This document shows, piece after piece, positions 3,104 through 60,132 of a stretch of 64,000 bases of DNA (the first letter of the stretch is position 1; every line of letters starts with the position of its first letter). The stretch comes from Candidatus Falkowbacteria bacterium GW2011_GWF2_43_32 (GTDB lineage: Bacteria; Patescibacteriota; Patescibacteriia; Patescibacteriales; UBA12465). Where the stretch lies: positions 323,139-387,138 of the forward strand of contig LCGL01000001.1 in the NCBI GenBank assembly GCA_000999715.1, read 5' to 3'. The notes under the pieces were generated by a model. It did no database searches and was not told where the DNA came from. It saw only the letters and a program-made list of their open reading frames with translations. Both the position numbers and the translations under genes were made by a program.

Positions 3104-4306
3104 CTACAGATACCGCGGTAAACGGCGCTTGGTTTTCAGGCTGGGAACCTTGATACAATAGATTAAAGCCCAAAAAATCCGGGCCAAACGACTTCGCAAA
3201 TGCCAGCCCCAGAGATTGCCTAAGGCCGATTTTTTACCCAAAGTCAAAAATTCACCGCGATGCTTATAAACAAAAGGCCGCAAGGGTTTGTTGAGCACAA
3301 GTGCTTCAATGTTTCTCGCCGCCACGACAGCCTGTTGATTGGCTACTTGCGCCAATCCGGGAAGAGGTCCCCCGTTTACCAGCAAACAAGAACTGTCCCC
3401 TAAACACAGAACGTTACGATGACCTTTCATTAATAATTCCGGAGTAATTTCCAGCCGGCCATTAACCGCCACCGGCTGATTGCCTAAAAATTCAGGAGTT
3501 TGCGCTTTAAGACCCGCGGCCCAAATAATATTTTCGGCCATAATTTCTTGACCGTTTTGCAAAACAATCCCTCGCGGCGACAAAGATTCCGCCAAAGAAT
3601 TAAAAATAATTTCCACGCCGATTTTATCAAAACATTTTCGAGCTTCGGCTCTCATCCAAGCGGGAAAAGAGGCCAAAATTTCCTGTCCGCGACTAATCAG
3701 TTTTACCGAAAACTCATTATCGCGCAAATGACTGCCCGCACTCAAAAAATGTTTCTGTTGATTCAACAATTGTTCTTGAATATGGGCCGCCAGCTCGACT
3801 CCGGTGGGACCGGCGCCTAAAACGGCAAAAGATAACAGTTGTCGCCGACGTTGTTCGTCACTTTCTTGAGAAGCAAGCAATAAAGCTTTTTCAATTTTGT
3901 CGCTTAAGCGAAGGGCGTCGTCAATGTCTTGAAATTTATAAATTCGGGAGCTTTCTGCCGGAAAAAAAATATCAGCTTTAGCTCCGGTGGCAATAACCAA
4001 AATATCAAAAGTCAAAATCGTTTTTTTCAATCGGACTTGACGCCGCTCCAGATCAACGGCGATTATTTCTTGATGATAAAAAGTCGTCCGCTTATCCAAT
4101 AAGCTCACCAAAGGAATGGCCACCTCGTCCGATCGCAAACGACCGAAAATCAATTCGGGCAACAAAGGAGTAAACAAAAAATAATCTCGCCGATCTACCA
4201 AAGCCAGCTCTATCAGTCCGCGACGCTGAAGCGGCTTTAACAGTTTGGCGGTTTTAATCCCGCCGAATCCCGCTCCCAAAATGACGACTCTTTGTTTATT
4301 TGTCAT
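3104..4306 (-). CDS. ndh: type II NADH dehydrogenase / FAD-dependent pyridine nucleotide-disulfide oxidoreductase
   Basis: 400 aa with an N-terminal VVILGAGFGG Rossmann motif and a second GAGPTGVE dinucleotide-binding motif. The length and layout fit NDH-2. Confidence 0.75.
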   Translation of the reverse strand: MTNKQRVVILGAGFGGIKTAKLLKPLQRRGLIELALVDRRDYFLFTPLLPELIFGRLRSDEVAIPLVSLLDKRTTFYHQEIIAVDLERRQVRLKKTILTFDILVIATGAKADIFFPAESSRIYKFQDIDDALRLSDKIEKALLLASQESDEQRRRQLLSFAVLGAGPTGVELAAHIQEQLLNQQKHFLSAGSHLRDNEFSVKLISRGQEILASFPAWMRAEARKCFDKIGVEIIFNSLAESLSPRGIVLQNGQEIMAENIIWAAGLKAQTPEFLGNQPVAVNGRLEITPELLMKGHRNVLCLGDSSCLLVNGGPLPGLAQVANQQAVVAARNIEALVLNKPLRPFVYKHRGEFLTLGKKSALGNLWGWHLRSRLARIFWALIYCIKVPSLKTKRRLPRYL

Positions 4307-4334
4307 GGCCGAATTTTATCATAAATTGTCTTAA

Positions 4335-4364
4335 TAAAAAAGAGCTCCCGAAAGCTCATTTTTT
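4335..4364. terminator. bidirectional intrinsic terminator upstream of ndh
   Basis: Hairpin GAGCTCCCGAAAGCTC (4342-4357), flanked by an A-run on the left and TTTTTT on the right. Confidence 0.6.
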
Positions 4365-4416
4365 GTAAATATGGTATTTTCACCAACTATTTTTGGGCAT
4401 TAAACCATAAATTAAT

Positions 4417-4444
4417 ATAAAAAGCCCACGTTTTATAGTGGGCT
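4417..4444 (-). terminator. intrinsic terminator of mini-unit 1
   Basis: Minus strand reads AGCCCAC-TATAAAAC-GTGGGCT followed by TTTTTAT. Confidence 0.6.
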
Positions 4445-4480
4445 CTTGCCTTCTCCTTTAAAGGCATTAAACAGTTTGTG

Positions 4481-4582
4481 TTAATAACAACCCTGTTTCC
4501 CAGTCGTTTTCAACAACTCCCTCTTTTGGTGATTTCGTGGCGAGCCGCGAGAATTTTTAACACTTTTTCTAATGTACTTCAT
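4481..4582 (-). CDS. 33-aa highly basic small protein (mini-unit 1), function unknown
   Basis: Own translation: MKYIRKSVKNSRGSPRNHQKRELLKTTGKQGCY*. A GGAGG sequence lies 8 nt upstream of the ATG, which is rare in this window. The ORF has its own TTGACA-17-TATTAT promoter and its own terminator. It is too short for the ORF track. Confidence 0.45.
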   Translation of the reverse strand: MKYIRKSVKNSRGSPRNHQKRELLKTTGKQGCY

Positions 4583-4623
4583 GTCTTTTTCCTCCATATT
4601 AAGTTAATACTAAAGACATTTAA

Positions 4624-4652
4624 ATAATATATCTGTTATACCTTCTTGTCAA
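4624..4652 (-). promoter_or_regulatory. sigma70-type promoter of mini-unit 1
   Basis: Minus strand: TTGACA (4652-4647), 17-nt spacer, TATTAT (4629-4624). Confidence 0.6.
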
Positions 4653-4733
4653 TTGGTTTACTTTCTCACAAAGAATCTATATTTTTAAAACAAAAAATGA
4701 CCATAAAATTATTTTTATACACCCCCTTACGGG

Positions 4734-4793
4734 GTGGCTAACCGCAAAACTTGGCAAACTTTTTTGATGGAGTGCTTGATACATTAAAAAAAA
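4734..4793. repeat. conserved inter-unit module, copy M1
   Basis: Plus strand: gtggctaaccgcaaaacttggcaaacttttttgatggagtgcttgatacattaaaaaaaacc. The first 40 nt differ from M4 at only 2 positions. All four copies share the core AAACTTG(G/A)(C/A)AAACTTTTTTGAT. Confidence 0.85.
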
Positions 4794-5013
4794 CCACCTA
4801 CATGAGATGGTTTTTGTAAAATAGTTCTTTAAGATACCGCAGTGATATCGCAATCCGCAAAGAGCTTCGGCCCACCCTCACAGGATGATTTTTTTATGCC
4901 TTAGCTACAATTCTGGGTTATCAACTCTTAGTGAGGACTTCCCCTTTAATTAGGTTAACCATCTTGCGAGTGATGGTCAGATACTTTGCCTAACTTTCTC
5001 AAAAAGAACTATA
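4785..5013 (-). ncRNA. candidate non-coding RNA A (mini-unit 2), about 229 nt, unknown family
   Basis: A promoter (TTGACT-16-TAAGAT) lies upstream. The terminator hairpin AACCATCT-CATGT-AGGTGGTT plus a U8 run is at 4812-4784. No start codon with a usable ORF is present. The 5' end (5012-5003) is perfectly complementary over 10 bp to 4830-4821, just before the terminator. There is also an internal hairpin ACCATC/GATGGT. Confidence 0.5.
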
Positions 5014-5018
5014 TTTAA

Positions 5019-5046
5019 ATCTTAACATTAGTATTCAAAAAGTCAA
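5019..5046 (-). promoter_or_regulatory. sigma70-type promoter of mini-unit 2
   Basis: Minus strand: TTGACT (5046-5041), 16-nt spacer, TAAGAT (5024-5019). Confidence 0.5.
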
Positions 5047-5112
5047 TAGATTGTACAACATTAAACTTAAAACAAAAAATAATTCCTAAAAAGAAATTGT
5101 TTTTATATATGA

Positions 5113-5176
5113 GTGGCTATTCGAGAAACTTGAAAAACTTTTTTGATTAAATATTTGATAAATTGATATAAAAAAG
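5113..5176. repeat. conserved inter-unit module, copy M2
   Basis: Plus strand: gtggctattcgagaaacttgaaaaacttttttgattaaatatttgataaattgatataaaaaag. It differs from M3 at about 1 position over roughly 48 nt. Confidence 0.85.
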
Positions 5177-5199
5177 ACCCGCGATATTGTTACGGATCT
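5170..5199 (-). terminator. intrinsic terminator of mini-unit 3
   Basis: Minus strand: AGATCCG-(11-nt loop)-CGGGTCT followed by TTTTTTA. Confidence 0.6.
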
Positions 5200-5245
5200 T
5201 ACAGTTTTTATTTAAACATATTTTGAGGGCATGAGCTAATAGTGA

Positions 5246-5398
5246 TTAAACCTCAAAATTTTCCCTAATGGAGTAAAGAAACGCCAACATGAAAGCTGCG
5301 CCAGCGCAAGCTAGAGTTATAACTGATGCTTCAGACTTCCAGTAAAAAACAAAAATGCCAAAAAGAATTGCTGTAAAATAATTAAAGAATGTTTTCAT
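5246..5398 (-). CDS. 50-aa two-TM hydrophobic peptide (mini-unit 3)
   Basis: Codon-by-codon translation: MKTFFNYFTAILFGIFVFYWKSEASVITLACAGAAFMLAFLYSIRENFEV*. An AGGAG sequence lies 9 nt upstream of the ATG. The ORF has its own promoter, a roughly 115-nt leader and a terminator. Confidence 0.5.
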   Translation of the reverse strand: MKTFFNYFTAILFGIFVFYWKSEASVITLACAGAAFMLAFLYSIRENFEV

Positions 5399-5430
5399 AA
5401 CTTATGACTCCTATTTTTAATGTTAAATAT

Positions 5431-5486
5431 AATTAGATTAATTATTAAGTTTACTAACATTAATAGACTTAATAATTAATCTAATT
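5431..5486. promoter_or_regulatory. perfect 20-bp inverted repeat in the 5' leader of mini-unit 3
   Basis: aattagattaattattaagt (5431-5450) is the exact reverse complement of 5467-5486, with a 16-nt loop. It lies between the predicted start site (about 5512) and the SD/ATG (5398). Confidence 0.8.
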
Positions 5487-5519
5487 TTAACCTTTTTGTA
5501 ATGAACTATATAACTAAAT

Positions 5520-5548
5520 AATATATCACATATATTATATTTTGTCAA
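5520..5548 (-). promoter_or_regulatory. sigma70-type promoter of mini-unit 3 (extended -10)
   Basis: Minus strand: TTGACA (5548-5543), 17-nt spacer ending in TGTGA, TATATT (5525-5520). Confidence 0.6.
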
Positions 5549-5635
5549 TCAATTTATATTATTTAATACTGTTGAGCCACATTTTAACCTTACATAATAG
5601 AAAAACCGAGCTTTCGGACCCGTGCTTTCCTTAAT

Positions 5636-5929
5636 CTATTCCCAAAAAATTAATACCAATGAAACAACCCCCAACAAGAAACCGATGATTTGAATTCTAT
5701 TAATCGGCTCCTTATAAAGCACCATCCCCAATATTACTGCGATAATAGCCGACGCCACAGAAAAAATAATTGCTCCTCTTCCTAGTCCGGCTCCATTTTT
5801 AAGAGAAAACAACCAAAAAGAATTTGCCACCAAATAAAGAGCAAGGCTGATTATTGCAAACCAAATTATTTTTTTTAGCGACCACTCTTTTGCAAATACG
5901 TCAGCAACTGCTTCAAAAATTATTAACAA
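5636..5929 (-). CDS. SMR/EmrE-like small multidrug-resistance-family membrane protein, possibly 5'-truncated
   Basis: 97 aa with four TM segments. The motif IIFEAVADVFAKEW aligns with the EmrE TM1 segment ILAEVIGTTLMKF, including the membrane-embedded Glu. The start is a TTG with no SD, only 5 nt from module M3. Confidence 0.5.
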   Translation of the reverse strand: MLIIFEAVADVFAKEWSLKKIIWFAIISLALYLVANSFWLFSLKNGAGLGRGAIIFSVASAIIAVILGMVLYKEPINRIQIIGFLLGVVSLVLIFWE

Positions 5930-5934
5930 TAAAA

Positions 5935-5988
5935 GCGGAAAACTTGAAAAACTTTTTTGATTAAGTATTTGATAAATTGATATAAAGA
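5935..5988. repeat. conserved inter-unit module, copy M3 (left part missing)
   Basis: Plus strand: gcggaaaacttgaaaaacttttttgattaagtatttgataaattgatataaagag. It lacks the GTGGCTA.. left end found in M1, M2 and M4. The SMR-like ORF starts where that end would be. Confidence 0.85.
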
Positions 5989-6238
5989 GAGGGCTAATTG
6001 CTTAGCCCTCAAAAATTTAGAACTCGTTGAACTGCTTTCAAGGCTATTTCACTCTATTCGCCCCTTCGATTAATAAGGACGGTATCTTATTTTTGACTCC
6101 GCTAAAGCTGGCGCCCTAGGTTCACAGTCTCCCGCCTATTCTGCACATTACTAATCTATCTTCAAGCCAACATACAGGAATTGGACCCGCTGGAGATATA
6201 ATCTCTTGCGCCCATTGCGCTACATTGTTTCTAAATTT
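5985..6238 (-). ncRNA. candidate non-coding RNA B (mini-unit 5), about 255 nt, unknown family
   Basis: The promoter is TTGACA-17-TAATAT. The terminator-like hairpin GAGGGCTAAGCAATTAGCCCTC (6010-5989) has only a weak U-tract. No ORF longer than 9 codons is present. The 5' end (6238-6228) pairs over 11 bp with 6023-6013, just before the terminal hairpin, which is the same architecture as RNA A. Confidence 0.45.
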
Positions 6239-6244
6239 AATTAA

Positions 6245-6273
6245 ATATTATAAATAAAATCAACTTTTGTCAA
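6245..6273 (-). promoter_or_regulatory. sigma70-type promoter of mini-unit 5
   Basis: Minus strand: TTGACA (6273-6268), 17-nt spacer, TAATAT (6250-6245). Confidence 0.6.
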
Positions 6274-6346
6274 CAAAAATACAGCAAGATCTATTTTAAC
6301 CCTCATATCCCAGAAAAAAGCAAAATAGTTCATTTTTCCCAAATAG

Positions 6347-6410
6347 GTGGTTAATCGCAAAACTTGGCAAACTTTTTTGATGGAGTATTTGGTGAGTTGA
6401 TAAAAAAGAG
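6347..6410. repeat. conserved inter-unit module, copy M4
   Basis: Plus strand: gtggttaatcgcaaaacttggcaaacttttttgatggagtatttggtgagttgataaaaaagag. Confidence 0.85.
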
Positions 6411-6433
6411 ACCCTTGATGTTATCGCGGGTCT
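6402..6433 (-). terminator. intrinsic terminator of mini-unit 6
   Basis: Minus strand: AGACCC-(12-nt loop)-GGGTCT followed by CTTTTTTAT. Confidence 0.6.
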
Positions 6434-6459
6434 AGAAATTAGGTAATAAAATCTTTAAT

Positions 6460-6609
6460 TTACATAAACATCAGAGACATCAAAATAAATACCGCAGCAA
6501 TAGCCCACGCAAGCGATGATTTTTTAGATTTTTTTTTAAAACTAAAATATAAACAAAGAATACCGGTAATGAATACTAACACTTTTAAAATTAGAATAAA
6601 AATTTCCAT
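6460..6609 (-). CDS. 49-aa two-TM hydrophobic peptide (mini-unit 6)
   Basis: Codon-by-codon translation: MEIFILILKVLVFITGILCLYFSFKKKSKKSSLAWAIAAVFILMSLMFM*. It has the same TM-charged loop-TM layout as the 5246-5398 peptide. Its leader carries a degenerate version of the unit-3 palindrome. The SD is weak (AGAAA). Confidence 0.4.
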   Translation of the reverse strand: MEIFILILKVLVFITGILCLYFSFKKKSKKSSLAWAIAAVFILMSLMFM

Positions 6610-6717
6610 TATTTCTATTTTTTAATTTAACAATTCGATTAATTCTTAAATTTACTATTTATAATAAACTTAATAATTAACCCAATCGTTTTTTGTAAAA
6701 GAACTATATAACGAAAT

Positions 6718-6746
6718 ATCATATCACATTTACTATTTTTTGTCAA
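6718..6746 (-). promoter_or_regulatory. sigma70-type promoter of mini-unit 6 (extended -10)
   Basis: Minus strand: TTGACA (6746-6741), 17-nt spacer ending in TGTGA, TATGAT (6723-6718). Confidence 0.6.
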
Positions 6747-6838
6747 TTAATTTGTCTTCCCACTAGGGGGTAACAAGACCAAAACAAAAAATAACCCCAA
6801 TCCGCCAGCCGGCGGAGGAGTTATTTTCGCTAATATTA

Positions 6839-7057
6839 GGGTGCCTACTGGGAGTATCTCACTCAGCCGCCGCCGGAAACGCGGCGGCTTCGCTCGTCCT
6901 GGGTTGGCGCCGAGCCCTGCGCCAGCTCGGGTTCGTCGACGCTCGTCCGCTCATTTCGGCTTCCGCCTCAACTCGCGTCTCGCTTCCAACCTGTTCAACT
7001 TCCCGGCTAACGCCGACAGTAATAAAAGAACGCGCAAATGCGCGTTTTTTTATTACT
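6839..7057 (-). repeat. tRNA-His trailer module: hairpin, inverted T-arm copy, GC-rich spacer, 17-bp repeat of the tRNA 3' end
   Basis: gggtgcctactgggagt occurs at 6839-6855 and again at 7058-7074 inside the tRNA (17/17). The hairpin is at 7018-7057. gttcaacttccc (6993-7004) is an inverted T-arm copy. The spacer at 6856-6992 is GC-rich. Confidence 0.85.
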
Positions 7058-7058
7058 G

Positions 7059-7130
7059 GGTGCCTACTGGGAGTTGAACCCAGACTATCGGGACCACAAC
7101 CCGACGTTCTACCGCTAAACTATAGGCACC
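7059..7130 (-). tRNA. tRNA-His (anticodon GUG) with encoded G-1
   Basis: Cloverleaf read by eye: GGTGCCTA acceptor including G-1:C73, anticodon stem TCGGG/CCCGA, loop TTGTGGT, T-arm TGGGTTCAACTCCCA. Confidence 0.85.
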
Positions 7131-39601: not shown

Positions 39602-39700
39602 GTGGACTTGAGGGGACTTTCGCGCTCGTTCGCCGCTTGTTCGAGTTCCTTTCGATCAGTCAATAAATTATTCAGACAAAGCCTGAATAATTTATTGATG
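39602..39700 (-). repeat. tRNA-Ala(CGC) trailer module: hairpin, inverted T-arm copy, GC-rich spacer, 17-bp repeat of the tRNA 3' end
   Basis: gtggacttgaggggact occurs at 39602-39618 and at 39700-39716 in the tRNA (17/17). A 16-bp-stem hairpin is at 39661-39697. gttcgagttcc (39639-39649) is an inverted T-arm copy with 1 mismatch. The spacer is ttcgcgctcgttcgccgctt. Confidence 0.85.
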
Positions 39701-39773
39701 TGGACTTGAGGGGACTCGAACCCCTTACCTCTGCAATGCGAATGCAGCGCTCTACCAGATGAGCTACAAGCCC
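39701..39773 (-). tRNA. tRNA-Ala (anticodon CGC)
   Basis: Acceptor GGGCTTG/CAAGTCC with G3:U70, anticodon stem CTGCA/TGCAG, loop TTCGCAT. Confidence 0.85.
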
Positions 39774-41657: not shown

Positions 41658-43065
<1,408 letters not shown>

Positions 43066-50523: not shown

Positions 50524-50584
50524 GGGTTATTAGCTCTTCCCTCGCTTCCCGTTCATTAATTGACGAAGGCGGAGGCTAGAGCGC
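50524..50584 (+). repeat. pseudo 5' fragment of tRNA-Ala(GGC) with a 37-nt insertion at the D-loop position
   Basis: GGGTTATTAGCTC (50524-50536) matches the tRNA 5' end GGGCCATTAGCTC at 11/13. GGCTAGAGCGC (50574-50584) is identical to the tRNA D-arm at 50616-50626. The two pieces are separated by ttccctcgcttcccgttcattaattgacgaaggcgga. Confidence 0.7.
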
Positions 50585-50598
50585 CTCAATGTGTTTAA

Positions 50599-50672
50599 GG
50601 GCCATTAGCTCAGTTGGCTAGAGCGCTTCCATGGCATGGAAGAGGTCAAGGGTTCAAGTCCCTTATGGTCCA
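50599..50672 (+). tRNA. tRNA-Ala (anticodon GGC)
   Basis: Acceptor GGGCCAT/ATGGTCC with G3:U70, anticodon stem CTTCC/GGAAG, loop ATGGCAT, T-loop TTCAAGT. Confidence 0.85.
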
Positions 50673-50919
50673 CTAAAAAAAAGAACCCCACCTGCGTGGG
50701 GTTCTTTTTTTAAGATTGAAAGCATAAGGGACTTGAAAGCCGGAGGCGATGCGCACTTGTGCGCCGCCGAGGCCGGGTCGGGGCGCTTAGCGAGTGAGAC
50801 TTGCGAAGCAAGCGAGCGAGGCTTAGCGACCGTGACCAAGTCCCTTATGGTCCACTAATGAAAACAACCCGAACTGCTTTGGGTTGTTTTCATTAAAGAT
50901 AAAAATAAGGGACTTGAAC
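50673..50919 (+). repeat. tRNA-Ala(GGC) trailer module, doubled: hairpin, inverted T-arm, GC-rich spacer, 22-bp 3'-end repeat, second hairpin, second inverted T-arm
   Basis: caagtcccttatggtccactaa occurs at 50655-50676 and 50837-50858 (22/22). cataagggacttgaa (50723-50737) and ataagggacttgaac (50905-50919) are 15-nt exact inverted copies of the T-arm. Hairpins are at 50676-50712 and 50859-50895. The GC-rich spacer is at 50738-50836. Confidence 0.85.
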
Positions 50920-56168: not shown

Positions 56169-57245
56169 TTATTTTTCCAATAAAGACAATATTTTATTGT
56201 CGTTTTTATCAACCCATTCTTTGAAAGCGCGACGCGCTTCCGGAGAAGGGGTTTTTTGATGGTCGGTTATCAAAGAGAGATTAAAATTCGTCGCCGTTAT
56301 GGCCAATCCGGCTCGCTCGGCGTCAAAGGCGTTGCTTTTCTGTTCAAAATGGTTGATGGTCGGAATCATTAAAATCGGTTTTTGCAAATAAGCGGCCTCG
56401 GCGATAGAGTCAAAACCGGCGGTCGCGACGTAAGCGCGGCAAGAAGATAAATTATCAATAAATTGTTGGCCGCTGAGCTGATAAAAAACTAAATTAGGAC
56501 CGAAGATCGTTTTCTCTTCTCCGGGATTGTTCCAAAAAGCGCGGACGGAGCTTGTCGGATTGGCTTTCGCCCAGGAAATTATTTCTTCGCTATATCCGGA
56601 ATTCAACAGATAAACCAAAAGAAAGTTTCCAGTCACGGGGACGGTTTGTTTTATGGCCTGACGAATCAGCGGCGGACAAACAAACAGATTTTTTTCCGGG
56701 CAGTCATTTTCCGCCGTGAAAGACAGAGCGATTTTTATGGTCCGGCGCGGCGCGGTCAAACGGTTATATAAACGAAAGGAAAGCTTGGTCAGCCAGTGAA
56801 GCGGCGGGAAACGGAAAGCAGGATGAGCGATAAAATGCTGATGTCCGATACAAAACATCGGTCGTCGATCACGGGAAAATCGGTAGTAATTGCCGGCCAA
56901 AGGTTCATAGAAATTGACAAAAATATCCGGCGGAAATTCGGTCACGATTTTTTTTATTTTTTTAATTGACGCCAGATAATTCGGGAGACGCCAAAACGCT
57001 TGCCGTGCGCTGGCAAAGATTTTTATTCCTTTTTTGCCGGCATCGACTATAAAACGAGGACTGTCGACAGTGAAGAGAGGGCTTTTGATTTGTTCTTTGA
57101 AGAAAGTCGGCAGTTCGTCGCGGGAAGCGGAACCGACGACGACCGCCACGACCGCATGACCTCGGTTTTCCAGTTTTTCCTTTAAAGCCAGGGCTTGGGT
57201 CATATGGCCGCGTCCTTCGCCTTGAATGAAGAAGAAGTATTTCAT
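56169..57245 (-). CDS. glycosyltransferase (GT1/GT28 MurG-like family)
   Basis: 358 aa. The N-terminal FFIQGEGRGHMTQALAL is a G-rich GT-B motif, and there is a C-terminal nucleotide-sugar-binding-like region. Confidence 0.6.
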   Translation of the reverse strand: MKYFFFIQGEGRGHMTQALALKEKLENRGHAVVAVVVGSASRDELPTFFKEQIKSPLFTVDSPRFIVDAGKKGIKIFASARQAFWRLPNYLASIKKIKKIVTEFPPDIFVNFYEPLAGNYYRFSRDRRPMFCIGHQHFIAHPAFRFPPLHWLTKLSFRLYNRLTAPRRTIKIALSFTAENDCPEKNLFVCPPLIRQAIKQTVPVTGNFLLVYLLNSGYSEEIISWAKANPTSSVRAFWNNPGEEKTIFGPNLVFYQLSGQQFIDNLSSCRAYVATAGFDSIAEAAYLQKPILMIPTINHFEQKSNAFDAERAGLAITATNFNLSLITDHQKTPSPEARRAFKEWVDKNDNKILSLLEK

Positions 57246-57349: not shown

Positions 57350-58585
57350 TTATTTGAATGTCCGGCGCCTTCGGTTGAATGTCCGTTTCGTTTTCGGACG
57401 AGCGACATTAGGTTCCGATTTTTTGGACAAGCTGACAAATTCCGTTCGCTTGATATTTTTATTGATCAACCGTTCAATTTCTTTGATTTCTCGCGCTTGA
57501 TTGGCGGTGGCAAAAGTAATGGCTTTTCCCGCTTTGTCGGCGCGTCCCGTGCGACCGATGCGATGAACATAGTCTTCGGAATTGTCCGGCATATTATAGT
57601 TCACCACCAATTCAATATTATTGATGTCCAGGCCGCGCGCCGCCACATCCGTCGCCACCAGAATGCGCTTTTTTCCGGATTTAAAATCATTAAGTGCCGC
57701 GCGGCGACGATTTAAAGACAGATTGGAATGAATTTCCGTGGCTCGATGTCCGCCTGCCTGTAATTTTAGAGTTAAAGCTTTTACGCCGTGCTTGGTTCTG
57801 ACAAACACCAGAACCGAGCCGGCATAACGAGCCAGAATTTTTTCCAGATGGCTGAGCCGTTCTTCGCCGTTAATGATAAATATTTCTTGATCGACTTGAG
57901 CGGCCGTCGTTCCCGGTGGCGCGACTTCAATACTGACCGGCAGTTTCATATATTCGGTGGCGATTTTAACAATTGCCGCCGGCATCGTCGCCGAGAATAA
58001 CATGGTTTGACGTTCTGCCGGTGTTTGATTGAGGATTTCCTTAATCTGGGGAGCAAAACCTAAATCCAACATCATATCCGCTTCATCCAACACCAAAATA
58101 GTTATTTGATCCAATTTGAAAGTCCGGCGTTTTAAATGATCCAACAGTCTTCCCGGAGTGGCCACGACAATATGAGGTTTTTTGCGCAAACAAAAAAGCT
58201 GGCGGTCCAGGGATTCTCCGCCGATTAAACTGGCCGTGCGAAGCCCTAAAGATTGACCCAGTTTTTTCAAGCTTTCTTCAACCTGTAAAGCCAATTCACG
58301 GGTGGGCGCGATAACCAGTCCCTGCCCTTTGTTTAAGCCCAAGCGTTGTAACATGGGGATGCCGAAAGCAAAAGTCTTGCCGGTGCCGGTTTGTGCCACG
58401 CCAATCAAATCCTGACCGCTTATGGCCACGGGGATGGTTTTTTCTTGAATAGGCGTCGGTGTTTTGAGATTCAGTTTGGTCAAGGCCTCTAAAATTGATT
58501 GACTGATGCCCAAATCGGAAAATTGTTTTAAAGGTTGAGCCAAGCTTGTCCGGTCAACCCGGCTAGTGTTAATAGTGTGTTTCAT
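57350..58585 (-). CDS. DEAD-box ATP-dependent RNA helicase
   Basis: 411 aa with the Q-motif, AQTGTGKT, DEAD, SAT and HRIGRTGR motifs, plus a basic C-terminal tail. Confidence 0.95.
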   Translation of the reverse strand: MKHTINTSRVDRTSLAQPLKQFSDLGISQSILEALTKLNLKTPTPIQEKTIPVAISGQDLIGVAQTGTGKTFAFGIPMLQRLGLNKGQGLVIAPTRELALQVEESLKKLGQSLGLRTASLIGGESLDRQLFCLRKKPHIVVATPGRLLDHLKRRTFKLDQITILVLDEADMMLDLGFAPQIKEILNQTPAERQTMLFSATMPAAIVKIATEYMKLPVSIEVAPPGTTAAQVDQEIFIINGEERLSHLEKILARYAGSVLVFVRTKHGVKALTLKLQAGGHRATEIHSNLSLNRRRAALNDFKSGKKRILVATDVAARGLDINNIELVVNYNMPDNSEDYVHRIGRTGRADKAGKAITFATANQAREIKEIERLINKNIKRTEFVSLSKKSEPNVARPKTKRTFNRRRRTFK

Positions 58586-59024
58586 AATAAAAATAAGTGA
58601 CCCGATTATTCAAGGTCACTTAATATATGACGAAGATTCGAATCTTAATTTAATAGATTAATTATGGCATATAATTATAATTAAGTCAAGGATTATACGT
58701 TTTCGTTTCTTCGTTCTTTTGTCATTTTTCGTCAGCTTTAAGTTCTATCATTGTTAAACCAGCTTTTATTTGGACATATAAAAAGGTGCGAAAGGTTATT
58801 TAAGCGACGGTTTAATTATATAGGTAGCTTATCCATAGCGGCAGTTTATTAAAAAGTTAAAAAAGACCAGAATCATTGACATTTTTTATGATGTATGTTA
58901 ATTTATAACATTAAAACCGTTCTTTCAAAAATAGGGTTAAATTGGATTAATTATCAAATCCACCTGTTCAGGCGAATTTGTAGTTAATCTAATTATTCTT
59001 AAACCTTTATAAAATTGATAAATC

Positions 59025-59843
59025 ATGAAAAAAATTAGTGTATTGCTCGTAATGTCAGTTATTTTAGTTTGTCAGTGCTTCGGCCAGCAATATAAAATTG
59101 ATTATGAAAAAAATCGTTCCGGTAAAGACATTTACTATGTATCTAAAATTAAAATTGAAATTGAAGATGCAGATACTTTATTTTTTATCGATCAAGCTAT
59201 TCCTGGCATCAAACGAATTGAAGCTTATGAAGAAGGCATCGCCTTTTACGACACCAGTAGAGTGTCGAGCAATTATAATGCTAATCATTTTTGGCTAACT
59301 CGATATTATAATATGGAGTATAAAATTGCTAAATTTGATAAAGCCAAAAAAGAGATTAGACAAACTGTCGCAACTACGGTGTCATCAGATTCCTCTGTGT
59401 CTGTTGAAATTATAGTAATTTTGTTCCTGGCCATTATTTTGGTATTATCAATATTTTTAACAGAGACCGGTGATTGTTCTGACAAAGATATTGAAAAGCC
59501 GGAATTTGGACTCGTTTTTCTTCTTCCGTGGCTGGGTTATTCCATTTGTTTATTAGTTAGTTTTTTTGGTTCTTTTCATAATCCAGAATCACAAATATTT
59601 GTTGGAGTTCTCATGAGCGTAGCAGGTATATTTTTTGTTGTTTCAATGTTTACAACAAAGTGGAATAAAAATAAATATATTGTTTTCCAAACCGTGAACC
59701 TGTCTATTGCCTTGATGTCAATTGGTGCCATTACCGGAAGTTGGTGGGCATCTTTTGTCTCCATACTAGCTTCTTTATTTTGTTATTCAGTATTTGTAAT
59801 TGTTCGCCGGGCAGCTATTGCAATAACAGAGAAGATCAAATAG
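59025..59843 (+). CDS. hypothetical membrane protein (signal peptide, extracytoplasmic domain, 4-5 C-terminal TM segments)
   Basis: 272-aa ORF that is visibly AT-rich. A TTGACA-17-TAATTT promoter lies roughly 130 nt upstream of the ATG. I recognised no family. Confidence 0.45.
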   Translation: MKKISVLLVMSVILVCQCFGQQYKIDYEKNRSGKDIYYVSKIKIEIEDADTLFFIDQAIPGIKRIEAYEEGIAFYDTSRVSSNYNANHFWLTRYYNMEYKIAKFDKAKKEIRQTVATTVSSDSSVSVEIIVILFLAIILVLSIFLTETGDCSDKDIEKPEFGLVFLLPWLGYSICLLVSFFGSFHNPESQIFVGVLMSVAGIFFVVSMFTTKWNKNKYIVFQTVNLSIALMSIGAITGSWWASFVSILASLFCYSVFVIVRRAAIAITEKIK

Positions 59844-59919
59844 CTCAAAATTTACTCTGGTAATAAAATTGAAGTCTCAAAGGTATTTAAGAGGCCTTAA
59901 ACCAGCCTCTTTTTTATTT

Positions 59920-60060
59920 AGAGCGGGTAAGGGGAATAGCGTGCTCGATTATTCGTCGTCGCTTCCGCTCCTCCTCATATCTCGCTCGCTACCTGTCCGA
60001 TTCCCGGCTCGACTCTTATAAAATAAAACAGCCCCTGACGAGGCCGTTTCATTTTATAAG
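59920..60060 (-). repeat. tRNA-Gly trailer module: hairpin, inverted T-arm copy, GC-rich spacer, 18-bp repeat of the tRNA 3' end
   Basis: agagcgggtaaggggaat occurs at 59920-59937 and 60059-60076 (18/18). The hairpin is at 60015-60060. gtccgattccc (59995-60005) is an exact inverted T-arm copy. The spacer at 59938-59994 contains ctcgctcgct and cgtcgtcgcttccgc. Confidence 0.85.
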
Positions 60061-60132
60061 AGCGGGTAAGGGGAATCGGACCCCTCTCATAAGGTTGGAA
60101 ACCTTAGGTAATAACCACTATACGATACCCGC
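60061..60132 (-). tRNA. tRNA-Gly (anticodon UCC)
   Basis: Acceptor GCGGGTA/TACCCGC, anticodon stem TAAGG/CCTTA, loop TTTCCAA, T-arm GGGGTCCGATTCCCC. Confidence 0.8.

Follow-up and report, generated by a model that had tools for sequence, protein, structure and literature searches.

The trailer of a tRNA-Gly(UCC) gene in Candidatus Falkowbacteria bacterium GW2011_GWF2_43_32 is best read, at a probability of about 60%, as a degraded copy of a small mobile module (~100-250 bp) which encodes no protein and has tRNA genes of Patescibacteria as its specific insertion sites. We document the architecture and recurrence of these modules, their family relationships, the structural covariation of their cores, and their presence or absence among relatives; we infer their mobility. 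They appear to represent a widespread and apparently undescribed class of tRNA-specific mini-insertions with structured cores, in which the tRNA-Gly copy, judging from its sequence, is a degenerate member. No published description of such modules was found in the literature searched. The copy lies in a stretch of 64,000 nucleotides (termed the window), which has a G+C content of 42%; its genes include one for 16S rRNA, 11 for tRNAs, and housekeeping genes such as dnaA, dnaN, rnpA, yidC, pheS and dprA.

An ordered insert behind four tRNA genes

The sequence-only reading had described an ordered module behind tRNA-Gly, and each of its parts was recovered on the minus strand in the order proposed, with an 18/18 direct repeat and an exact 11-nt inverted copy of the T-arm. 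In the sense of the tRNA, the locus comprises:

60194-60166: promoter-like TTGACT-17-TAATAT at tRNA-Gly(UCC)
60061-60132, minus strand: tRNA-Gly(UCC), the target gene (ARAGORN; Rfam tRNA, 56.5 bits), with T-loop TCCGATT
60059-60076, minus strand: direct repeat, proximal copy, 18 nt, ATTCCCCTTACCCGCTCT, covering tRNA positions 58-73 plus 2 nt
60015-60060, minus strand: proximal hairpin H1, 46 nt, terminator-like, as read from the sequence
60006-60014, minus strand: linker, 9 nt, AGTCGAGCC
59995-60005, minus strand: inverted T-arm, 11 nt, GGGAATCGGAC, the exact reverse complement of tRNA positions 53-63
59938-59994, minus strand: spacer, 57 nt, purine- and GC-rich, a single long imperfect hairpin with a GGAA loop, equivalent to arm 1 of core family B (see below)
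59920-59937, minus strand: direct repeat, distal copy, 18 nt, ATTCCCCTTACCCGCTCT, identical to 60059-60076
59884-59919, minus strand: distal hairpin H2, a probable native terminator for tRNA-Gly

The insert amounts to 139 bp and contains no ORF; the ORFs adjoining the module are an MFS transporter gene and an ORF without a Pfam hit. The 18-mer ATTCCCCTTACCCGCTCT occurs twice, against 0.00 occurrences expected from 100 shuffles even with two mismatches permitted, and the spacer has a fold z-score of -2.6. Because independent assemblies from two other sequencing runs contain the identical module sequence, it is not an assembly artefact. The linker is similar to those of a related locus, L008 (AGTCGGAGCC), and of tRNA-His in the window (GTCGGCGTTAGCC).

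We read the distal 18-nt repeat (59920-59937) as the original 3' end of the tRNA gene, which would have been pushed downstream, and infer from the sequences that H1 came in together with the insert. H1 is unlike the terminators found behind the identical tRNA-Gly in about 16 related genomes, and H2 resembles one of these, having AAAAAGAGG...ATTACC in common with the terminator behind the identical tRNA in L034, a modest likeness. A consensus terminator scan called neither H1 nor H2, so that the name "terminator" for these hairpins refers to shape and position only.

The tRNA itself is unusual in having C at position 55 of its T-loop TCCGATT, a position that is nearly universally U (pseudouridine) in tRNA, and the same 3' part of tRNA-Gly is present, exactly, in more than 100 species-level genomes. 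Beyond the module, a DEAD-box helicase gene and a 272-aa membrane ORF of 30% G+C with no Pfam hit occupy positions 57350-59843, and this segment separates the module from a glycosyltransferase gene (56169-57245). In at least seven syntenic relatives (L012, L064, L005, L082, L098, L103, L084) the start codon of the glycosyltransferase lies 5-8 nt behind tRNA-Gly. Since the gene adjoins tRNA-Gly in these relatives, the 2.7 kb beyond the module may represent an independent insertion into this hot spot; no additional tRNA repeat was detected.

Recurrence of the layout at four tRNA genes had also been proposed, and the same arrangement is indeed seen at tRNA-His, tRNA-Ala(CGC) and tRNA-Ala(GGC), making four of the 11 tRNA genes of the window with a module and seven without:

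6839-7074, minus strand: tRNA-His module, with repeat copies at 7058-7074 and 6839-6855, a hairpin, and an inverted T-arm at 6993-7004 (one extra A)
6856-6992, minus strand: full family B core of the tRNA-His module
39602-39716, minus strand: tRNA-Ala(CGC) module, with repeat copies at 39700-39716 and 39602-39618, an inverted T-arm at 39639-39649 (one extra A), and a spacer of about 20 nt
50655-50919, plus strand: tRNA-Ala(GGC) module, with repeat copies at 50655-50676 and 50837-50858 and an inverted T-arm at 50723-50737

The spacer of the tRNA-Ala(GGC) module is 99 nt long, does not belong to family B, and is followed by a native-like hairpin; this array also includes a second inverted T-arm (50907-50919) with no spacer behind it.

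Several further features of the window were recorded. An ORF-poor 2.7-kb region (4307-7057, minus strand) contains several small ORFs and repeated AT-rich leader-like sequences, with four copies of TCAAAAAAGTTTKYCAAGTTT (at 4747, 5126, 5940 and 6360), each directly behind a hairpin. The same region includes an isolated 89-nt match (6068-6156, minus strand) to positions 2126-2215 of bacterial 23S rRNA, the L1-stalk region, scoring 50.4 bits, just at the gathering score; distant as it is from any rRNA gene, it could be an rRNA mimic in a leader. The 16S rRNA gene (41659-43065) spans 1407 nt, compared with a 1533-position model, and has no adjoining 23S rRNA gene; three tRNAs and a gene for a tRNA synthetase of the Pfam class I W/Y family lie downstream of it. 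Closely preceding tRNA-Ala(GGC), at 50530-50598, is a pyrimidine-rich stretch, CTCTTCCCTCGCTTCCCG, the antisense of the core motif GGAAGCGAG, together with an 11-nt copy of the D-arm of that tRNA, GGCTAGAGCGC, at 50574.

Geometry and folded cores across Patescibacteria

To survey the layout more broadly we used 110 loci (denoted by L-numbers) that match the 3' part of tRNA-Gly, each up to 8 kb in length and taken from one genome per species; almost all of these genomes are Patescibacteria (candidate phyla radiation). The same inverted T-arm stands behind tRNA-Gly in ten of the 110, most of which also have the 3'-end repeat. Among the 272 tRNAs called by ARAGORN in these loci about 25 have a module, their specificities being Gly, Ala, Arg, Pro, Gln, Thr and Phe, and here as in the window modules are always 3' of the tRNA and on its strand. 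For 247 tRNA genes with complete flanks, an exact inverted copy (at least 10 nt) of the T-arm/3' region was present within 150 nt downstream in 21 and upstream in none, the longest upstream match being 9 nt.

The antisense copy of the T-arm is 10-19 nt long, at times reaching into the acceptor stem, and is placed 7-94 nt from the T-arm. Its inner end is the complement of tRNA position 53 in 17 of 20 cases, and its outer end falls at position 62-71. These inverted segments differ with the tRNA and hence are derived from the target. The direct repeat begins at position 56-61 (mostly 57-59) and runs to position 73 plus 0-45 nt, with a length that varies from 12 to 60 nt; in four cases (L018, L071 and both L104 copies) it spans the whole terminator hairpin. 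Departures from a single complete unit include tandem units (L018, L087), shortened cores (tRNA-Gly and tRNA-Ala(CGC) in the window, tRNA-Gly in L017), an antisense segment and core with the distal repeat missing (L008 and the outer unit of L018), and arrays ending in an antisense segment with no core (window 50907-50919, and L071, whose array contains a run of N).

That no element is involved, the layout being local replication or repair noise from palindrome extension and slippage around tRNA terminators, we regard as very improbable. The 3' part of the tRNA, the hairpin and the inverted copy do form a long quasi-palindrome, nearly perfect in L086 and L061, and quasi-palindromes can be extended by template switching. 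However, conserved, covarying cores are common to unrelated loci and genomes, and shared core families cannot arise locally.

Three further mini-inserts were recorded behind tRNAs. Two tandem 105-nt units behind tRNA-Leu (L087, 3333-3545) start with AGGTTGG, lack an inverted T-arm, and are flanked by repeats that extend from position 57/58 as far as CCA; an 80-nt insert behind a tRNA (L039, 2100-2210) is bounded by a repeat that begins in the anticodon stem; and another core family is present behind tRNA-Pro (L041, 1500-1700).

Cores fall into families, and the same family occurs behind different tRNAs, each time with an antisense segment matching the tRNA in question. Family A, of which 13 copies were collected, is hosted by tRNAs for Gly, Arg, Pro and Thr; all copies retrieved by pattern search lie just 3' of a tRNA and on its strand. 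It consists, in order, of a purine-rich leader, hairpin P2, the joiner GTGnnGGAG, hairpin P3 around GAACCGnGGGTTC, a variable hairpin and a purine-rich tail. Positions 4-7 of helix P3 show two to four pair types each, and all 44 cells are standard pairs (43 Watson-Crick, one G-U); the pair pattern of helix P2 is similar. The 5-6 nt that precede the repeat imitate the local T-loop save for two changes, C56 to T and A58 to C, and this segment could pair with the inverted copy, leaving fixed mismatches at positions 56 and 58. Since all three of Gly, Arg and Pro show these two changes, the boundary where element meets target can be placed at position 58/59.

Family B is hosted by tRNAs for His, Gly, Ala and Gln. 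Its fold has a closing helix P1 (GGTTGG/CCAACC, replaced in L008 by GGTCAG/CTGACC) that encloses arms 1 and 2, followed by arm 3; arm 1 always terminates in CGGAAG, and the helices are broken by G/A-rich internal loops. In the four full copies from which fold and covariation were assessed (n=4), 95.9% of cells are paired and 15 of 37 pairs show compensatory changes, a result equalled by none of 500 shuffles; in slid controls at most 45% of cells are paired. A covariance model built only from the four full-length relatives of the tRNA-His spacer matched the tRNA-His core (140 bits), L017, L008, two tandem copies in L018, and L089. The earlier suggestion that the spacers are homologous even where the tRNA-derived parts differ is borne out by the only other match of this model in the window, to the tRNA-Gly spacer (29.5 bits, rough E-value 5e-6 to 6e-5), with the homology restricted to arm 1: the alignment covers model positions 1-52, and P1, arm 2 and arm 3 are missing. 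Since the match is confined in this way, the tRNA-Gly spacer is a one-arm truncated copy and no full homologue. The spacers of tRNA-Gly in L017 (23 nt) and tRNA-Ala(CGC) in the window (about 20 nt) are even shorter, the latter too short to score, and the tRNA-Ala(GGC) spacer of the window represents another family, C, which it has in common with L017.

These properties bear on a further alternative, in which the module serves its host as a co-transcribed trailer RNA, its antisense segment pairing with the T-arm in cis (for instance in the control of processing or folding, or as a modification guide) and the repeat acting as a competing partner. Consistent with such a role are the invariable position directly downstream on the tRNA strand, including one locus (L063) with no terminator between tRNA and core; the conserved GNRA-type loops and covarying helices of the cores; and an antisense segment for which sequence predicts two alternative pairing partners, the tRNA and the distal repeat. 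There are precedents for tRNA-linked guide RNAs in the plant tRNA-snoRNA genes cited in a study that also speculates on RNA-guided modification in these bacteria (PMC12045711). Nevertheless we consider a host-serving RNA improbable: most close relatives with identical tRNAs lack the module, as do all but four of the window's 11 tRNAs; tandem, nested and truncated copies exist; most copies stand behind a strong hairpin; and inspection by eye revealed no box C/D-like motif by the antisense segment. By the same inspection, which extended to H/ACA boxes, a box C/D or H/ACA guide RNA was set aside as an identity for the module.

Occupied and empty sites, and searches for a source

Many of the loci are syntenic with the window at a DNA identity of 65-73%. 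The identical tRNA-Gly(UCC) is found in about 20 related genomes, and a module follows it in four (the window, L017, L008 and L018); at empty sites the tRNA is followed directly by the glycosyltransferase start codon, or by a plain terminator with no inverted T-arm. Likewise, the 3' end of tRNA-Ala(GGC) is common to 11 genomes, two with a module and nine empty. One of the two, L017, carries the family C unit of the window and, inserted beside the tRNA, an extra unit of family B. The hairpins are also informative. The distal hairpin of the tRNA-Ala(GGC) array in the window matches the native terminators of L045 and L034, and the repeated hairpin in L018 matches that of L105; the proximal hairpins of tRNA-Gly and tRNA-Ala(GGC) in the window match none of the native terminators compared. 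Such sequence comparisons suggest that the tRNA is the point of entry for each new unit, that a unit can supply a hairpin of its own, and that older material is shifted downstream. At strain level, three assemblies with an identical neighboring protein all have the identical module, and neither an empty site, a polymorphism nor a circle junction was found among them; the comparison of filled with empty sites was made at 65-73% DNA identity.

In another alternative, modules would spread with no dedicated enzyme, by natural transformation and homologous or homology-facilitated recombination: with the tRNA on one flank and a 17-60 nt duplicate of its 3' end on the other, a unit could be copied into every genome that has this tRNA. 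The mismatch of proximal hairpins with the native terminators of the lineage, at both tRNA-Gly and tRNA-Ala(GGC), suggests that these hairpins came from another lineage; genomes that are otherwise 65-73% identical have identical tRNA sequences; and the window encodes a transformation protein, DprA. Left unexplained, however, are the presence of one core family at different tRNA species with a newly matched antisense segment, the very existence of that segment, and the left boundary of the repeat, fixed in the T-loop. We judge this alternative quite improbable.

No Rfam 15 model matched the cores at gathering score anywhere in the window, and relaxed searches (E ≤1 for eight loci, E ≤10 for two cores) returned just generic hairpin or terminator look-alikes far under threshold; with no Rfam match, a known RNA family was ruled out, and the group II intron models in particular had no match at these loci. 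An intron in the tRNA was rejected because the proximal repeat already completes the tRNA. A retroviral-type primer-binding site was likewise ruled out, the repeat being sense rather than antisense and continuing past position 73 into genomic bases instead of CCA.

Sources were sought in several collections. Viral contigs scanned with four module-specific patterns and one family A pattern yielded either no hit or only chance matches, which lay in coding DNA away from any tRNA, and BLAST of both cores against 50,697 phage records gave no match; a phage or viral origin was set aside on these grounds. A two-block family B pattern had a sole match in metagenomes, the contig of L017. No autonomous parent element or related insertion sequence emerged from the 110 loci, the phage records or the viral contigs. 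The 35 ORFs of the window that were scanned are mostly housekeeping genes (six have no Pfam hit) and include no recombinase, integrase or reverse transcriptase, and specifically no DEDD/RuvC recombinase and no Nop-domain Tas gene; nor was any recombinase, reverse transcriptase or nuclease linked to a copy.

Small stand-alone GIY-YIG nuclease ORFs (PF01541, E-value 1e-16) were encountered in the survey, in nine of nine cases within 600 nt of a tRNA gene (L102 at 3739-4080, L099, L054 with two, L053, L019, L037, L063 and L023). In L102 a 14-nt inverted repeat closes the ORF, which has tRNA-Gly on one side and a repeat of tRNA positions 61-73 on the other. Free-standing homing nucleases of tRNA loci are one possible identity for these ORFs; they are also candidates for an enzyme acting on the modules in trans.

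Elements that integrate at tRNAs classically leave as their footprint a direct repeat that extends from the T-loop through to the tRNA 3' end, and many tRNA-targeting integrases use the T-loop. Modules could accordingly be scars of integrase-driven islands or prophages, in which a kilobase-sized element integrated at the T-loop and an internal deletion left the arms flanking the attachment sites. Besides the matching repeat geometry, this would accommodate other mini-inserts with tRNA-fragment borders, such as that of L039 with its repeat from the anticodon stem, and the 2.7 kb beyond the tRNA-Gly module that are missing in relatives. We nonetheless hold it to be unlikely. Independent deletions would not repeat one junction, the antisense end at position 53 abutting the core, together with one core length, in dozens of loci and at several tRNAs; at the 272 tRNAs, in loci of up to 8 kb, no repeat-bounded element longer than 350 bp was found other than a neighboring tRNA; and no integrase gene was found among the window ORFs scanned, nor any copy in the phage and viral collections.

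Candidate insertion routes and relation to known systems

Under the reading that we prefer, that of a mobile module, a full unit would comprise four parts: the tRNA sequence copied from position 57-59 in the T-loop to the 3' end, often with a terminator hairpin included; a short linker; an antisense version of the T-arm, 10-19 nt long, which nearly always has the complement of position 53 at its inner end; and a conserved, folded, GC- and purine-rich core of one of several families (A, B, C and others). Insertion at the T-loop would rebuild the tRNA and move the original 3' end and native terminator downstream. Because new units would enter beside the tRNA, older units would move outward and decay.

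Two routes can be envisaged. In the first, which proceeds through RNA and which we prefer, a read-through trailer transcript would use its tRNA-like 3' end to pair with a tRNA gene whose T-loop carries a bottom-strand nick, and would be copied back into that gene; a fixed first nick would give the constant left boundary of the repeat and a variable second nick its variable right boundary. The antisense T-arm might then be a guide that pairs with the target, or a snap-back copy made by second-strand priming at insertion; copying accounts more readily than point mutation for its fixed inner and variable outer ends. In the second route a trans-acting recombinase would act at the DNA level on a folded site, in which the antisense segment is paired with the T-loop-like segment in a CTX-type layout. 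We favor the RNA route slightly, in view of the RNA-like nature of the core, an orientation that strictly follows that of the tRNA, and repeat boundaries of which one is fixed and one variable; the DNA route is nearly as likely, and transformation with homologous recombination would also fit the anatomy. Copies lacking the distal repeat (L008, outer L018) and core-less array ends are not predicted by a simple single-site insertion model, and neither these nor the units of L087, with no antisense segment, fit any simple version of the RNA, DNA or transformation routes.

Each route has relatives among known systems. Like islands and prophages with tRNA-targeting tyrosine integrases, the modules show a direct repeat from the T-loop to the 3' end or beyond, a rebuilt tRNA, and serial insertions stacked at the tRNA; unlike them, they are 100-250 bp in size and gene-free, carry a folded core and an antisense T-arm beside the tRNA, and are accompanied by no visible integrase. 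With CTX-phage-type elements and integron cassettes they share two inverted copies of a core site, 30-100 nt apart near one end of the insert, able to pair (in family A with one or two fixed mismatches by the junction), whereas the module duplex is about 11 bp of tRNA T-loop rather than a dif or attC site, and family B has no matching second arm. In sequence arrangement alone, they resemble the bridge RNA of IS110 and the guide RNA of TIGR-Tas, in that a single non-coding RNA would carry both an antisense segment that matches the top strand of the target and a repeat that matches the bottom strand. The bacterial group concerned also has TIGR-Tas systems (PMC12045711). The modules differ from both in having no adjacent recombinase or Tas gene, no array and, by eye, no box C/D motifs, and in segments that overlap by about 6 nt instead of abutting and measure 10-19 nt and at least 17 nt, not 9 + 9.

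Similarly, MITEs and Correia, RPE and REP-type elements are small, non-coding, hairpin-forming, multicopy within a genome and patchy among relatives; by comparison with MITEs, however, the inverted ends of a module are copied from the target, the target duplication is variable and measures 17-60 nt rather than 2-10 nt, and insertion is strictly tRNA-specific and in one orientation. Target-primed retroelements (SINE/LINE, class C group II introns) offer parallels in an orientation fixed by transcription, a variable target duplication with one fixed boundary, insertion beside a terminator hairpin, and a structured RNA that could be the template, but for the modules no reverse transcriptase, Rfam group II intron match, poly-A or intron domain was found.

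The most far-reaching version of the mobile reading, which we offer tentatively and think somewhat unlikely as a whole, is a gene-free, nucleic-acid-guided class of mobile elements, in which the element's own folded RNA, arising by read-through from the promoter of the tRNA, would choose the T-loop on both strands through a reprogrammable antisense T-arm segment and a sense 3'-end segment, and an enzyme supplied in trans would copy or recombine that RNA into the tRNA gene. By analogy, such an element would be a bacterial counterpart of a SINE, or a free-standing guide resembling a bridge RNA.

For genome analysis, the module repeats break assemblies, as in L071 with its run of N, and modules leave tRNA 3' fragments that can be mistaken for island boundaries. 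For the biology of these bacteria, a tRNA-matched antisense segment in a covarying RNA fold points either to target choice guided by nucleic acid or to an insertion chemistry that copies the target backwards, and either would be new for bacteria. If mobile, the modules, which encode no protein, would be smaller than any other site-specific element known to home to a tRNA gene, and would supply compact targeting RNAs from bacteria in which TIGR-Tas systems are already known.
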